From Deltaproteobacteria bacterium RBG_16_49_23 (GTDB lineage: Bacteria; Desulfobacterota; BSN033; UBA1163), in the NCBI GenBank assembly GCA_001798855.1, contig MGQQ01000104.1, forward strand, positions 1,093-65,092: DNA of 64,000 nucleotides, written 5' to 3'. Below are positions 1,591 to 53,722 of this stretch, in pieces. A program made the position numbers and the translations under genes. The stretch's first letter is position 1. Each line of letters opens with the position of its first letter. The notes beneath the pieces were generated by a model that was not told the origin of the DNA, made no database searches, and saw only the letters and a program-made list of their open reading frames with translations.

Positions 1591-1660
1591 TGTCATATTA
1601 ATTCAGGTAATGTATATTTTTATTAATTACTAATGAGTCCATAATTGAGAAGACATATTT
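1591..1660. repeat. Repeat family H arm (ttaat..agtccataat.gagaagacata)
   Basis: Related copies are at 13491-13530, 13650-13685 (inverted) and 45141-45180 (inverted). Each is adjacent to a family A GC-rich element. Confidence 0.5.
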
Positions 1661-1676
1661 ATACTGCCCTTCAAAT

Positions 1677-1764
1677 CCCCATCCCCCTCCTAACCTCCCC
1701 CTTGAAGGGGGAGGAACACAACGATTTCCCTCCCCTTCAGGGGGAGGGGATGGGTGGGGGTGGG
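1677..1764. repeat. GC-rich hairpin cluster, repeat family A
   Basis: Two hairpins, cctcccccttgaagggggagg and ccctccccttcagggggaggg, lie inside an outer ccccatcccc...ggggatgggtggggg pairing. Confidence 0.6.
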
Positions 1765-1834
1765 ATTAATCAGATGTTTATTCAATTATAGACCGATTAA
1801 TAAATGCTTAAAAAAGAAGCCGAGTGGTAAAAAA

Positions 1835-2860
1835 ATGCGAGTGGCAATGTATTATAACAACAGGGATGTAAGGCTGGAGGAAATGCCGACTCCAACCGTT
1901 GGCCCTGGAGAATTATTGGTTAAGGTGGTTTCCAGCGGAATCTGCGGCAGTGATGTGATGGAGTGGTACCGGATCAAGAAGGCGCCCCGGGTGCTCGGTC
2001 ATGAGATTGCAGGAGAAATTGCCAAGGTAGGCGAGGGGGTTAAAAATTATAAAATCAATGATCGAGTCTTTGTCTCCCACCATGTCCCCTGTAATACCTG
2101 TCATTATTGTCTGAATAGTCATCACACGGTTTGCGATACCCTTCGGACGACCAACTTCGACCCGGGTGGTTTTGCGGAATATATCCGGGTTCCTGAAATC
2201 AATGTGGACCGGGGCACATTTATATTGCCCGAAGAGATTTCATTTGAGGAGGGAGTCTTCATTGAACCTCTGGCCTGCGTTCTCAGGGGACAGAGATTGG
2301 CAAAGCTAAGACCCGGCCAGAGCGTCTTTGTTATCGGGAGTGGGATCTCCGGAATTCTTCATATCGCGCTGGCAAAAGCATCAGGCGCAGGGAGGGTGAT
2401 TGCGTCCGATATCAATGAATTTCGCCTGAAAGCAGCCAAACGGTTCGGAGCGGATGAGGTCCTTTCTGGAGAAGAGGCGAGTCCAGAAAGGATTCGTCAG
2501 ATCAATCATGGAAGATTGGCGGATCTGGTGATCGTCTGTGCGGGAAGCCTTTCGGCCTATAGACAGGCGCTCGAATGTGTTGACCGGGGAGGAACGGTTT
2601 TATGTTTTGGACTCCTTCAACCGGGAATCGATATTTCTTTTCCGTTTTTCGATTTCTGGAATGACGGAATCACCCTTCTGCCGACTTATGGCGGAGCTCC
2701 CATCGATATTCTTCAGGCCATTGAATTGATTCAGGCTCATCGCCTTCCACTGAAGGAGATGATTACCCATCGTCTCCCTCTGAAAAAGATAGGTCTTGGG
2801 TTTAAACTTGTCTCCGAAGCCAAAGAGTCCATCAAAGTCATCATCGAACCACATCAATAA
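1835..2860 (+). CDS. Zn-dependent alcohol/threonine/sorbitol dehydrogenase family (MDR) oxidoreductase
   Basis: GICGSDVMEW, GHEIAGEIAKVGEGV and GSGISG (Rossmann) motifs. The start was moved to ATG 1835 because the upstream part of the ORF lies in a repeat. Confidence 0.8.
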   Translation: MRVAMYYNNRDVRLEEMPTPTVGPGELLVKVVSSGICGSDVMEWYRIKKAPRVLGHEIAGEIAKVGEGVKNYKINDRVFVSHHVPCNTCHYCLNSHHTVCDTLRTTNFDPGGFAEYIRVPEINVDRGTFILPEEISFEEGVFIEPLACVLRGQRLAKLRPGQSVFVIGSGISGILHIALAKASGAGRVIASDINEFRLKAAKRFGADEVLSGEEASPERIRQINHGRLADLVIVCAGSLSAYRQALECVDRGGTVLCFGLLQPGIDISFPFFDFWNDGITLLPTYGGAPIDILQAIELIQAHRLPLKEMITHRLPLKKIGLGFKLVSEAKESIKVIIEPHQ

Positions 2861-2959
2861 TTAATCAATAATTAATTTGACAGGATAATGATATTTTGAT
2901 AGGAATTTAGTCACCCATATTAACCCTCCTATATTAAGAGGGACCAGGAGTAAACGAGG

Positions 2960-3469
2960 ATGGAAGAAAAAGTGCTTGTGAAAAAGGACCTGGAGGAAAT
3001 ATTTACAGGTTTTGAAAAACGCCAGGATGAGAAATTGAAGGGACTTGAGGTGCGGATAGACCAAAAGATGACTGGCCTTGAGGTACGGATAGATCAAAAA
3101 ATGGCAGGCCTTGAAGCACGGATGGATCAGAAAATAGAAAGCCTTGAAGTACGAATGGATCAAAAAATGACAAGCCTTGAGGGACGAATGGATCAAAAAA
3201 TGACAGGCCTTGAGGCGCGGGTCATCGATCAATTTAATATCATCTCTGAAGGGTTGATGGACCAAATAAATCTTTTAGCAGAGGGGCATACAGGAATTGT
3301 TGAACGGCTTGACCGGATTGAAAAGGAAAATGAACGTCAACATTTAGAAACCCGCGCCCTTGTAAAACTTTCCTTTTCTGAGCTGGATAGGCGACTCACT
3401 GATTTAGAGTCAAAAGTAATGGATTTACAAGAGTGGAGAAAACAAGTTGAATCGAGATTACGGATATAG
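2960..3469 (+). CDS. Coiled-coil protein with tandem 11-aa repeats (hypothetical)
   Basis: 169 aa containing about 6.5 copies of GLEVRIDQKMT-like units. No known catalytic motif. Confidence 0.5.
   Translation: MEEKVLVKKDLEEIFTGFEKRQDEKLKGLEVRIDQKMTGLEVRIDQKMAGLEARMDQKIESLEVRMDQKMTSLEGRMDQKMTGLEARVIDQFNIISEGLMDQINLLAEGHTGIVERLDRIEKENERQHLETRALVKLSFSELDRRLTDLESKVMDLQEWRKQVESRLRI
3043..3240 (+). repeat. 33-bp tandem direct repeat, ~6 copies, coding
   Basis: ggccttgaggtacggatagatcaaaaaatgaca-like units are repeated in-frame within CDS 2960-3469. Confidence 0.8.
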
Positions 3470-3504
3470 AGGGATTAAGTCTTAAAGAAGAGTCCACGGC
3501 TTAA

Positions 3505-4163
3505 TTGCCGTTTAAAGAGATTCCTTCATTCTTCCTCAAGCAACATTCCATGGGTCAGAATTTCCTTGACATTCAGAAGGAATATTTACAAAAAGTTTGG
3601 TTGCGGCCGATTCGAGAACTTGAGAGTCACTTCCTGCCCGATATGACAGAAACTGTCTTCACTTTCAGGCATTCGGAGAGCCCTGCGAACTCCATCCCCC
3701 GGAGATCATTCTTGGTGGCGAACCCCTTCGCAGTGCAGAAGGTATTCTGATTGCCATGTATGCGAGCTTTGTTGCGAACGAGCCGGTTCAACTTAAACCT
3801 TTGAAGTCCTTCAAACAATTTCCAGGAGGGATGGGCTATCAGGGGGCGTTTGCCATGAATGCCGAGAAGGTTCTCCATCCTCATGTCATTGCCATCGAGA
3901 AGCGAAAGGAAGAGATCGTCCTGAGGTTTTCCGGGCATCCTAATCCGGATGCCCCAAGGTGCGATTTCTCTTTTACCCTCTACCCGCTCCCCCGTGTCGC
4001 CCTTTACTACATCTTCAATCTACCCGATGAAGAGTTCCCTGCAAGAGCCACCTGCCTCTTCGCCTCCAATGCAGATCACTTCGTGCCTGTGGCTGGCCTT
4101 GCCGATGTGGCCGAATACACCGCCAAGAAGATCATTCAACTGGTCACAGAAGTGTTGAGCTAA
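3505..4163 (+). pseudogene. Conserved hypothetical gene interrupted by a frameshift near 3640-3660. Possibly DUF3786-like, but this is not verified.
   Basis: ORF 3505-3750 (frame 1) and ORF 3756-4163 (frame 0) overlap. Frame 0 is open from 3624 and reads HFQAFGEPCELHPPEIILGGEPLRSAEGILIAMYASF continuously into the downstream ORF with no in-frame ATG before 3756. Confidence 0.45.
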
Positions 4164-4176
4164 AGAATATACGGGG

Positions 4177-52470: not shown

Positions 52471-52700
52471 AATCCTTCCTGAGGGAAGAATTTCCCCTCT
52501 TTAGCCGCCGGCCCGTGGGGCCTCTCTCCGAGCCATGAGGCTCTCTGAGCCGGTGGCTGACCCGGAGGGCAAGGAGGGGATAGGGGAGATTTTTATAATA
52601 TACGTAGCGCCCTCATTTACCTGCCTGCACGAAGCCCGCCTCCAGAAGCCTTGCGGAGGGCAGGCGTTTCGGCGAAGGCAGGTTGAGGGCGGAATCCGTT
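52470..52700. repeat. Repeat family A composite element
   Basis: cccctctttagccgccggcccgtggggcctctc...cccggagggcaaggagggga...cctgcctgcacgaagcccgcctccagaagccttgcggagggcaggcgtttcggcgaaggcagg. Confidence 0.7.
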
Positions 52701-52744
52701 CCGCTCAATTTCAGTCTGGACATTTATGATGAAATTGAATATAC

Positions 52745-52840
52745 TAAAAACATGTTGGAATAATGGAATTATGGAATGATGGATGGATGGGATGAAAACC
52801 CAATATTCCAGTATTCCATTCTTCCACCATTCCAGCTTTT
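52745..52840. repeat. Repeat family B copy, immediately 5' of tRNA-Pro
   Basis: ttggaataatggaattatggaatgatgg ... caatattccagtattccattcttccaccattccag. Confidence 0.7.
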
Positions 52841-52843
52841 TAT

Positions 52844-52920
52844 CGGGGCGTAGCGCAGCCTGGTAGCGCACTGGCATGGGGTGTCAGGTGTCGGAGGTTC
52901 AAATCCTCTCGCCCCGACCA
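52844..52920 (+). tRNA. tRNA-Pro (anticodon GGG)
   Basis: Manual fold: acceptor cggggcg/cgccccg, D-stem gcgc/gcgc, anticodon stem ctggc/gtcag with loop atGGGgt (G37), T-arm ggagg-ttcaaat-cctct, 3' ACCA. Confidence 0.8.
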
Positions 52921-53245
52921 ATTTTTTTAAATTCCTTCCTTAATTAAAATCTAAATTGAGCGATTCTTTTTGAAATACCCTGTAGCCGCAGGCTTCAGCC
53001 TGCGTTTTCAAATCACCCATCGGGTGATTTGTAGGGCAAGACTTCAGCCTGAGAAAGCGTTTCGTGTCCACTATTGACACCGGGGGTCAACTTGAAATGA
53101 GAAAGAACCGAAAATGATATGCGATAGGGCGGCATGGATAGAGTGCCACTCTGTTAAGATGATAGGGAAACCGGTGGAGGTTGTTGCCGGGTATTCCCAA
53201 TCAAAAGAGGGGTGAGCTTATTAGCCTCACTCATCGGAGATTTAA

Positions 53246-53608
53246 ATGGGGATGACTCTGCTTAAAAATGAAAAGGATGCCCTTACAGACCTCAAGGAAG
53301 AGATATCAAAGAAATATAAATTGCTCTGGATGAAACTTATTGGCTCTAAAGCAAGAGGAGACTTTGATGAAGAATCAGATATTGATATTGTAATTGCCCT
53401 TGAAAATACTGACTGGGATATTGAAAGGGATATATTCGAAACATGTTTTTATTTAGGTTTAAAATACGACATCGTTATTTCACCAATCATTTATTCTGAG
53501 AAAGATATCAATGATACATTCACTCTAATAACCCCATTTTACAGAACAGTTGAGTCAGAGGGCATCCTGATATCAAGCCCAAATCCCGATTTAGAAATTT
53601 CAAAATAG
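53246..53608 (+). CDS. Nucleotidyltransferase-domain protein (MNT-type), orphan
   Basis: GSKARGDFDEESDIDIVI motif. No HEPN partner gene downstream. AT-richer than the core genes. Confidence 0.65.
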   Translation: MGMTLLKNEKDALTDLKEEISKKYKLLWMKLIGSKARGDFDEESDIDIVIALENTDWDIERDIFETCFYLGLKYDIVISPIIYSEKDINDTFTLITPFYRTVESEGILISSPNPDLEISK

Positions 53609-53609
53609 T

Positions 53610-53722
53610 TCCCTCTCCCTTGACGGGAGAGGGTTAGGGTGAGGGTGAGGGTGAGGGTGAATAGTTCACCTTTAAGGTTACCCCTCCCCCTCGCCCCCTC
53701 CCGCAAGGGGAGGGGGATTTAC
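53610..53722. repeat. Repeat family A element with (gtgaggg)n run
   Basis: ccctctcccttgacgggagagggttagggtgagggtgagggtgagggtgaa...cccctccccctcgccccctcccgcaaggggagggggattt. Confidence 0.7.

Follow-up and report, generated by a model that had tools for sequence, protein, structure and literature searches.

Layered palindromic repeats in the intergenic spacers of a deltaproteobacterial genome: probable mobile elements that may include relics of DUF559 cassettes

What are the GC-rich palindromes that occupy the spaces between the genes of a deltaproteobacterial chromosome, and what moves them? The question is raised by a 64,000-nt stretch (hereafter, the window) of contig MGQQ01000104.1 from Deltaproteobacteria bacterium RBG_16_49_23, a metagenome-assembled genome, in which a first reading of the sequence (the original prediction) had noted 18 intergenic sites built from a small vocabulary of hairpin modules. 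Our analysis suggests, with a probability of roughly 0.6, that these sites are layered, non-autonomous palindromic mobile elements and cassette relics, which are tolerated or used as terminators.

Palindromes nested in palindromes

Direct reading of the sequence found the GC-rich palindromic modules, as first described, at 18 of 18 sites. Specifically, when a simple hairpin is defined as a C/T-only arm of at least 7 nt, a loop of 3-8 nt and a complementary G arm, the window holds 26 such C-arm/G-arm hairpins against 3.3 ± 1.8 (maximum 8) in 100 dinucleotide shuffles, and 22 of the 26 fall at the noted sites, between genes. The motif AAAATCYCCC or its complement occurs 9 times, compared with 1.47 ± 1.2 in shuffles, none of 100 reaching 9. 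The AAAATC..CCC and GGG..GATTTT ends, which had been taken for inverted termini, fold into a closing stem on every element, with two to four hairpins within. In a repeat search of the window, families D2-D18 correspond to the module vocabulary and families I7, I12 and I18 (92%, 76% and 97% complementary, respectively) to the H arms.

The elements are nested palindromic repeats, in which hairpins sit in the loops of larger hairpins, and simple and interrupted forms of one hairpin coexist in the window. Two copies of the M1 hairpin (CCCCTCTTTGGCAAAGAGGGG) are uninterrupted (18642 and 45041), and in five others (13544, 27409, 27476, 44985 and 52495) the loop contains a further hairpin of 32-70 nt. 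Of the copies of the P1 hairpin (CCTGCCTGCGCGAAGCC-GC-TTCGGCGAAGGCAGG), those at 10974, 24494 and 27528 are simple and those at 45067 and 52621 hold a central 30-nt hairpin; the copy at 24494 itself occupies the loop of the CCTCTCCCC/GGGAGAGG hairpin at 24478. P1 is commonly located at the tip of a larger palindrome, its flanks being more self-complementary than control sites (median -18.6 versus -12.7 kcal/mol, p = 1e-4). Outside the cores lie further shells, which are, from inner to outer, AAAATC/GATTTT stems, 30-nt H or 14-nt T (ACCCCGTTAGAAAT) arms, and low-complexity heptamer or octamer inverted arms.

A ~100-nt family of constant architecture, the hp1 doublet, occurs at 38950, 39926, 46146, 51780 and 53609. 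Its left unit is CCCTCYCCC-TTGAC-GGGRGAGGG followed by a G-tail (GGGTGRGGGTGA), its middle is a variable A/T-rich spacer, and its right unit consists of a C-tail, a second C/G hairpin and a T run. The consensus of the inverted doublet folds as three hairpins, with base pairs kept across copies. Canonical G-quadruplex motifs (e.g., GGGAGAGGGTTAGGGTGAGGG) number nine on the + strand against 2.9 expected, eight of them inside elements (1740, 7221, 24524, 38966, 39943, 46162, 51798 and 53625), where they are formed by the G arm plus G-tail of hp1-type units; a hairpin/quadruplex switch, in which the first two G tracts could pair with the C arm instead, is conceivable. The conserved TTGAC loop was considered as part of a -35/-10 promoter and dropped, its spacing to any -10-like hexamer being inconsistent.

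The elements of the window are given below; TIR denotes a terminal inverted repeat and MITE a miniature inverted-repeat transposable element.

1627-1768, + strand: H-type left arm (1627-1657, 97% complementary to 45148-45178, I18) and GC-rich composite; hairpins 1694-1714 and 1727-1749, G-tail 1740-1762
7019-7252, + strand: hp1-type arms (CCCCCTCACCC..CCCTCTCCCC / GGGGAGAGGGG..GGGGTGAGGGGG) around ~190-nt palindromic cargo, which recurs at 34036-34180; I1, I11, I20
10833-11276, + strand: nested "onion" unit downstream of rluB with putative DUF559 remnant; heptamer arms 10852-10877 / 11237-11262, 24-nt TIRs 10890-10913 / 11203-11226, left composite 10940-11018 (P1 10974-11007), remnant 11036-11113, right composite 11119-11195
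13498-13669, + strand: H-arm MITE, 172 nt; TIRs TCAGTCCATAAT..., core AAAATCTCCCC...GGGATTTT at 13530-13641
18577-18714, + strand: MITE-like composite with diverged H-type arms; core 18603-18676; I3, I6, I9
19573-19670, + strand: GC-rich nested palindrome beginning at the stop codon of the upstream gene; fold z = -4.5
24478-24565, + strand: C-arm/G-arm hairpin with P1 (24494-24527) in its loop, then (GGGTGAG)n G-tail; D2, D3
27393-27572, + strand: two M1-type hairpins, each with a loop-inserted hairpin, and P1 (27528-27561), closed by AATCCCCC / GGGATTTT; I4, I5
33077-33156, + strand: composite within low-complexity "G" arms (33003-33050 / 33190-33262)
37737-37775, + strand: minimal T-family hairpin (TIR, 7-nt loop, TIR)
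38950-39045, + strand: hp1 doublet after tsaD; D5, D6
39926-40025, + strand: hp1 doublet after rsmA
42898-42967, + strand: T-family element (TIR ACCCCGTTAGAAAT) after tRNA-Val
44973-45178, + strand: composite from the thrS stop codon; M1 with insert, second M1, P1 with nested hairpin (45067-45128), right H arm 45148-45178; I7, I18, D9
45805-45880, + strand: two small C/G hairpins between infC and rpmI
46146-46245, + strand: hp1 doublet between rpmI and rplT; D18
48103-48282, + strand: T-family element with nested GC modules, in frame in pheT; boundaries ± 6 nt
51682-51890, + strand: small AAAATC...GATTTT composite (51682-51726) and right arm, then hp1 doublet (51780-51890); D10, D18
52470-52690, + strand: three-level nested composite (52470-52593) and P1 with nested hairpin (52621-52682); its D9 copy is 98% identical to 45081-45128
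53609-53722, + strand: hp1 doublet with (GGGTGAG)4 tail

The original prediction had left this inventory incomplete: the T family (37737, 42898 and 48103) and the low-complexity heptamer/octamer arms had been missed. Sites 10950 and 11124 also call for a correction, being the two flanks of a single TIR-bounded unit that holds the putative DUF559 remnant.

The genes of the window are all ordinary housekeeping genes (mnmG, miaA, hfq, scpB, rluB, secDF, rplM, argC, mutS, tsaD, rsmA, clpB, ybjQ, tRNA-Val, thrS-infC-rpmI-rplT-pheS-pheT and tRNA-Pro), no transposase family was detected among them, and an Rfam scan at gathering thresholds returned only the two tRNAs, with no family at the repeats. 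The intergenic placement of the elements holds once the starts of the mechanically called open reading frames (ORFs) are corrected. The mechanical ORFs of RluB, RsmA and PheT are mis-extended or interrupted by repeats (the RsmA profile starts only at residue 49 of its ORF), and the real gene at 51991-52470 is ybjQ rather than a minus-strand ORF. Most elements start 0-45 nt past the stop codon of a co-oriented upstream gene. The terminator-like role proposed for them appears plausible from the sequence, since the top-scoring terminator-like sites between 36 and 55 kb (39013, 39991, 46217 and 51858, each a GC-rich stem-loop with a T run) belong to the ~100-nt family as its 3' hairpins. Flanking A and T tracts are contributed by the AAAATC/GATTTT stems.

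Other repeats share the window. In three spacers (6090-6204, 46770-46868 and 52756-52830), low-complexity octamer arms pair (TGGAATAA)n with (TTATTCCA)n into long hairpins, and relatives have similar arms at the same positions made from other short units (GTGGAAAG, ATTGCGG, GATGAAC). A separate family (I2) comprises 91-nt arms, 89% complementary, that stand inverted around the whole of pheT (47929-48019 / 50643-50733) and could permit its inversion. Hairpins of the GTCAYYCYGAGC.../GTCATTCCCGC...GCGGGAATGAC type, which occur in the window (37795-37870) and in relatives (L120 3915-4132, L122 5850-6456), look like another widely shared hairpin family and give rise to the spurious peptides "...RLRGND..." and "...AQDD..." that are common in annotations. 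Finally, at least five tandem 33-nt (11-codon) repeats lie at 2997-3227, inside an ORF (2960-3469) with a weak apolipoprotein-like coiled-coil match.

Turnover between relatives

The mobility of the elements is best seen by comparison with two sets of related loci, one chosen by PheS (L117-L122, 88-95% identical) and the other by RluB (L267-L271, 83-89% identical). The coding DNA of these relatives is ~85-90% identical to that of the window, yet every orthologous spacer differs in content and length, and BLAST alignments end exactly at the elements. In five relatives, for instance, the pheS-pheT spacer measures 13, 68, 74, 126 or 172 nt, and its contents are unrelated; the spacer after tsaD (site 38950) holds different content in relatives; and the hp1 doublet after rsmA is absent from L118 and L122, whose spacers are 36 and 76 nt long. 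The shuffling of dispersed modules that had been proposed is therefore borne out, with orthologous spacers lacking them or holding other elements and with single modules that come and go.

Two or more shells, the H and T families among them, act as MITEs, and four comparisons of empty and filled sites are sharp. The H-arm MITE at 13498-13669 is absent from L267 and L268. The surrounding spacer (13410-13497 and 13670-13772 versus L267 5399-5569) is ~98% identical, the neighbouring coding DNA ~87%, and the spacer in turn consists of two inverted GCGCATAGCG-type arms. Where the element is missing, the sequence is TTTTCA-TAATAA-AAATAAG, and the filled site has TATTAA on one side and TAATAA on the other. 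This comparison of empty and filled sites shows the H arms to be genuine terminal inverted repeats of MITE type, and the H element is a MITE because it combines TIRs with an apparent A/T-rich target duplication. Transposition by Y1 (single-tyrosine) enzymes makes no target duplication, and the apparent duplication therefore argues against Y1 "peel-and-paste" for the H shell, while favouring a DDE transposase for the outer shells.

The T family has 14-nt TIRs (ACCCCGTTAGAAAT / ATTTCTAACGGGGT) and variable cargo. Its element after tRNA-Val is absent from L117, L118, L120 and L122, and the junctions of the family (runs of T or GGGGT) are ambiguous for a duplication. In pheT, a T-family element forms a stop-free, in-frame insert of 180 nt that adds 60 residues (HPVRNSNGALPPPG...RDIISNGV) after residue 18 and lengthens PheT from 802 to 862 residues; five relatives without it read ...DIRMGV|KELINLL... 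at this point. The 444-nt unit downstream of rluB is likewise absent from the same spacer in L267, L269 and L270. It contributes the stop codon of the rluB ORF and the ~25 codons before it (10852-10926, heptamer arms and TIR), and RluB orthologues have C-terminal tails that are very unlike in length and content (237-289 residues).

The modules also repeat outside the window, where the original prediction had allowed that they might not: composites at 82-98% identity occur in metagenome contigs that are otherwise unlike it. The H MITE has a copy in a different context in L128 (84.6% over 175 nt), the composite at 18577-18714 has one in L145 (82.7% over 150 nt), the P1 and insert of 44973-45178 recur in L232 (98.5% over 66 nt), and the doublet at 53609-53722 recurs in L128 (91% over 190 nt). 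In addition, L232 carries the same TIR-bounded DUF559 unit as the rluB spacer, in another gene context. P1 is present only in the window copy of that unit, and a hairpin (M2) in the M1 loop only in the L232 copy.

P1, hp1 and the DUF559 gene

The original prediction had called the system lineage-specific, which does not hold for two of its modules, P1 and hp1, as both occur across many phyla. We searched a 596-Gb genome collection with a 17-mer P1 seed, for which ~140 chance matches are expected; 63 of 118 matches carry the matching 3' arm outside the seed, and they come from at least nine phyla. By record title these include Nitrospirota, Nitrospinota, Thermodesulfobacteriota, Alphaproteobacteria (among them the isolate Reyranella soli), Bacteroidota, Balneolaceae, Ignavibacteria, Bdellovibrionota, Chloroflexi and two candidate phyla radiation lineages. 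The P1 arms are kept, including their asymmetry (TGCGCG versus CGGCGAA), around a centre of 2 to 43 nt, and the shells outside P1 differ by lineage; the architecture of site 24478 is shared with three Bacteroidota loci (L023, L055 and L091). Neither P1 variant matched the plasmid collection, and viral contigs gave only four P1 matches, so phages are no obvious vehicle. P1 showed no orientation bias relative to neighbouring ORFs in the 63 loci, as judged from crude gene calls, which makes an RNA-sense-specific role unlikely. ABC ATPases as recurrent P1 neighbours were rejected as chance, being the commonest family.

The hp1 module (CCCTCYCCC-TTGAC-GGGRGAGGG+GGGTGRGGG), sought through the seed CCCTCYCCCTTGACGGGRGAGGGT, is found in at least 120 metagenome loci, on contigs of 33-71% GC that carry no taxonomy labels, and hp1-like units are also present in labelled genomes of Alphaproteobacteria, Bacteroidota, Balneolaceae and deltaproteobacteria. 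Pairing at the free Y/R positions of hp1 holds in 123 of 128 cases (T-A 70, C-G 53; Fisher p = 1e-29), and the G-tail co-varies. A second C-rich hairpin lies within 200 nt downstream in 51 of 122 units, preceded by a C-rich tail in 37 of these 51, and singlets are about as frequent as doublets. One 34-kb metagenome contig holds a head-to-tail hp1 array with a 62-nt period (L163 192-401). The literature available to us yielded no report of these hairpin strings in bacteria, the sole match to CCCTCCCCCTTGAC being an unrelated nematode paper.

Clustering of the ORFs near hp1, called crudely from stop to stop as in all our neighbour analyses, gave a single specific recurrent neighbour, a DUF559 protein of ~112 residues (Pfam E = 6e-43). 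The gene stands directly between units in 9 of the 120 listed hp1 loci and in one Bacteroidota P1 locus (L091). In the DUF559 loci, the G-tail points toward the start codon, and 0-10 nt past the stop codon comes TCACCC..-CCCTCYCCC-GTCAA-GGGRGAGGG; the gene therefore fills the loop of the doublet's central hairpin. The same arrangement was present in two loci selected by protein similarity alone. In a survey of 150 DUF559 representatives, at most 50% identical to each other, peptides derived from the hairpins (PSPLVGEGRVRG, HPPLTPPLKGGE and similar) appeared in 62 of 100 C-terminal and 31 of 69 N-terminal extensions of the ORFs, at 9.15 per 1000 residues compared with 0-0.04 in PheS, the RluB core and the DUF559 domain itself.

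DUF559 is uncharacterised; it has 25,287 cluster representatives at 50% identity, and its only solved relative is 3HRL. Its PD-(D/E)XK clade includes Vsr and the homing endonuclease I-Bth0305I (PMC3424549). We found no paper that links DUF559 to repeats. Most close DUF559 homologues (P0121-P0240) lie on very short contigs (0.5-2 kb), which fits assembly breaks at multicopy repeats. Two leads were set aside: the presence of P0128 and P0152 on many contigs does not signify many insertion sites, each being one locus sampled repeatedly, and two ~1-kb cases of paired units around other cargo are separate doublets beside ordinary DNA.

Within the window, positions 11036-11113 encode KVLRFFDREVFESTDGVMEGIWSCL*, a 25-codon C-terminal remnant that Pfam assigns to DUF559 only at E = 0.2; the collinear copy in L232 has ~50 domain-matching codons and reaches E = 1.2e-6. 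A DUF559 gene thus seems to have decayed between sites 10950 and 11124, leaving its C-terminus at 11036-11113, and the two copies would show one route to the composites, in which a cargo gene decays and its flanking hairpins stay. The earlier statement that the moving enzyme is not in the window may accordingly be half true, in that an intact gene is missing while a decayed copy seems to lie between two of the sites.

Candidate mechanisms and their meaning

What the data show directly is the repetition, the hairpin folds, the placement between genes, the presence or absence of whole elements and of single modules at orthologous sites, the in-frame pheT insertion, the spread of two modules across phyla and the physical link with DUF559. 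As to which enzyme would move which layer, how copies would be made and whether the hairpins would act as terminators, we infer the scheme set out here. Each family is a short inverted arm pair that folds as a hairpin, and new units are found mainly at the tip or in the loop of a hairpin that is already there, or directly after stop codons, so that "onions" build up, with low-complexity arms outermost, then H/T MITE TIRs, AAAATC..CCC/GGG..GATTTT stems, C-arm/G-arm hairpins, P1 and further hairpins. The outer H and T shells would move as classical MITEs, through TIRs and a short A/T-rich target duplication. The hp1-type units (C-rich hairpin plus G-tail) would be the terminal structures of cassettes that carry the Vsr-like DUF559 nuclease, and gene-less doublets and composites would be deletion relics of such cassettes or MITE-like derivatives. 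Spread would occur by nuclease-triggered copying, i.e., homing or gene conversion through the shared arms. As hairpins in 3' untranslated regions and operon spacers, the elements may persist because they are harmless there, or useful as intrinsic terminators, attenuators or 3'-end protectors. We put forward the part of this scheme that makes hp1 units the termini of copying DUF559 cassettes only tentatively. Its extension, namely that DUF559 cassettes are pan-bacterial minimal selfish elements whose terminal units seed the GC-rich palindromes of many environmental bacteria, and that the cassettes and their derivatives without a gene enter hairpin loops through nuclease-triggered copying, is doubtful, although it would explain near-identical non-coding hairpins in distant phyla.

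Several observations weigh against this scheme. No intact DUF559 gene is present in the window, none was seen in 11 close-relative loci, and the hairpins that flank DUF559 genes are of several kinds (hp1, M1 and P1 composites) with no single TIR, such that DUF559 could be a passenger that lands in, or borrows, terminator hairpins. No autonomous insertion sequence (IS) with H or T TIRs (TTAATCAGTCCATAAT or ACCCCGTTAGAAAT ends) was seen in the loci fetched, at which no scan for one was aimed. The H-element duplication is A/T-rich and ambiguous in length, from TA up to the 6-bp TAATAA. Terminator-like sites as a class are not enriched in the window (20 versus 24 expected in shuffles). The hp1 covariation has two states only and could stem from a pair of subfamilies instead of recurrent compensatory change. 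Lastly, loci picked by exact DNA seeds are biased to conserved copies, only the sequence outside the seed being independent.

The best-surviving alternative is that ordinary DDE transposases (IS630/Tc1- or IS5-like) act in trans on the H and T TIRs, with the inner hairpins as passive cargo that diversifies by slippage and recombination, and with DUF559 incidental, as a small selfish or defence gene that uses the same terminator hairpins. We consider this unlikely as a full account. The TIRs and apparent A/T-rich duplication of the H element, the 14-nt TIRs and variable cargo of the T family, the 24-nt TIRs of the window's own DUF559 unit and the heterogeneity of the hairpins beside DUF559 genes all agree with it. 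However, copies that are otherwise collinear differ in P1 and the M2 hairpin with no outer TIR involved, the hp1 and P1 arms are near-identical across phyla while the outer shells differ, DUF559 termini adjoin hp1-type units family-wide, and no DDE transposase with H or T TIRs was found in the loci fetched, again with no scan aimed at it.

The original prediction had instead proposed repetitive extragenic palindromic (REP) sequences, or bacterial interspersed mosaic elements (BIMEs), mobilised by a REP-associated tyrosine transposase (RAYT, an IS200-like Y1 HUH enzyme) encoded elsewhere in the genome. REPs, BIMEs and REPINs (REP doublets forming hairpins) are, like the elements here, short (20-40 nt) imperfect GC-rich palindromes, extragenic and downstream of genes, that occur as singlets, inverted doublets and mosaics with variable nested loops (PMC3116915, PMC3733652), nested loops being present in GTAG-3 and GTAG-14 REPs (PMC3733652); moreover, a single-strand-specific enzyme would explain insertion into hairpin loops. 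Yet most REPs are defined by a conserved unpaired GTAG/CGTC tag at the hairpin end (PMC3733652), and a GTAG/CTAC or CGTC/GACG tag lies within 8 nt outside the stem in 0 of 22 hairpins here, GACG occurring only inside five loops. The H element carries an apparent target duplication, no Y1 gene is present in the window or as a recurrent neighbour, and 1.78 Mb of related loci gave no IS200-like match (with a TnpA query of low sensitivity). REPIN-RAYT systems are described as vertically inherited within lineages, whereas two modules here are common to many phyla and the associated gene is a PD-(D/E)XK DUF559 endonuclease, not a Y1 HUH enzyme. A mobile, REP/MITE-like system is thus upheld, and its movement by a Y1 enzyme seems improbable. 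A separate hairpin in the spacer after rluB of L269 (3190-3262, GTAGGGGCGATTCATGAATCGCCCCTAC) is GTAG...CTAC-ended and of the classical tagged-REP form; this lineage may therefore have tagged REPs alongside its untagged families.

Evolution in place, in which immobile stem-loops (intrinsic terminators, attenuators or mRNA stabilisers) would have come to look alike by converging on C-rich/G-rich stems, is very improbable and largely refuted: the starts 0-45 nt past stop codons, the 3' hairpins with T runs among the top terminator-like sites and the base pairs maintained across copies would suit it, but it fails to account for long identical stretches at unrelated loci (98% over 48 nt in the window, 98.5% over 66 nt with L232), for sharp empty and filled sites with near-identical flanks, for an insertion within the pheT reading frame, or for the conserved asymmetry of the P1 arms across phyla, which structure leaves unexplained. 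The remotest reading, that the ~100-nt units are structured small RNA genes, draws on their three-hairpin consensus, single orientation in the window and terminator-like end, and is countered by the lack of an Rfam match, a hypervariable central loop (0 to 45 nt, up to a whole gene), singlets as frequent as doublets, high copy number and presence/absence between relatives.

The layered-element reading can be placed among known systems. Correia elements of Neisseria and Nezha of cyanobacteria are bacterial MITEs. The elements here share with MITEs (reviewed in PMC3184786) their TIRs, an apparent short target duplication, length of 70-180 nt, lack of an ORF, many copies, presence/absence between relatives, and placement in operon spacers, where they can supply terminators. 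They differ in that their cores are stacked GC-rich hairpins, which are independent repeat families in their own right and several of which nest, and in that the loci fetched, with no aimed scan, gave no parent IS with the same TIRs. Elements of the IS1397/ISKpn1 type insert in the loops of REP (palindromic unit) hairpins, and yeast mitochondria have GC clusters; there, as here, mobile DNA enters a palindrome apex and nested GC-rich palindromes result, although the incomers here are tiny hairpins or a 112-residue nuclease gene rather than a full IS, and the setting is a bacterial chromosome rather than a mitochondrion. A palindromic repeat in frame within an essential protein gene is known from Rickettsia. 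The 60-residue insertion in PheT resembles these Rickettsia palindromic elements (RPE, named in PMC3733652), which belong to another sequence family and lineage; most copies here are intergenic. Homing endonuclease genes of the Vsr/DUF559 clade, free-standing or intron-borne, such as I-Bth0305I (PMC3424549), are likewise small nuclease genes of the same fold clade, and a DUF559 gene between repeats has flanks that could serve as homology arms for copying into empty sites; here there is no intron or intein, and the putative homing sites would be dispersed hairpin doublets.

Elements of this kind break assemblies, produce false gene starts and tails, enter essential genes and may set operon boundaries, and the hairpin-in-hairpin-loop pattern offers a testable landing-site rule. 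A mobile REP/MITE-like system is of an already known type, and DUF559 as its driver would be new and is plausible. If this is true, the very large and uncharacterised DUF559 family would gain a function, the recurrent "junk" peptides (PSPL..GEGRVRG and others) that inflate ORF calls in metagenome-assembled genomes would be explained, and there would be a possible driver of bacterial palindromic repeats that is neither a RAYT nor a DDE enzyme.

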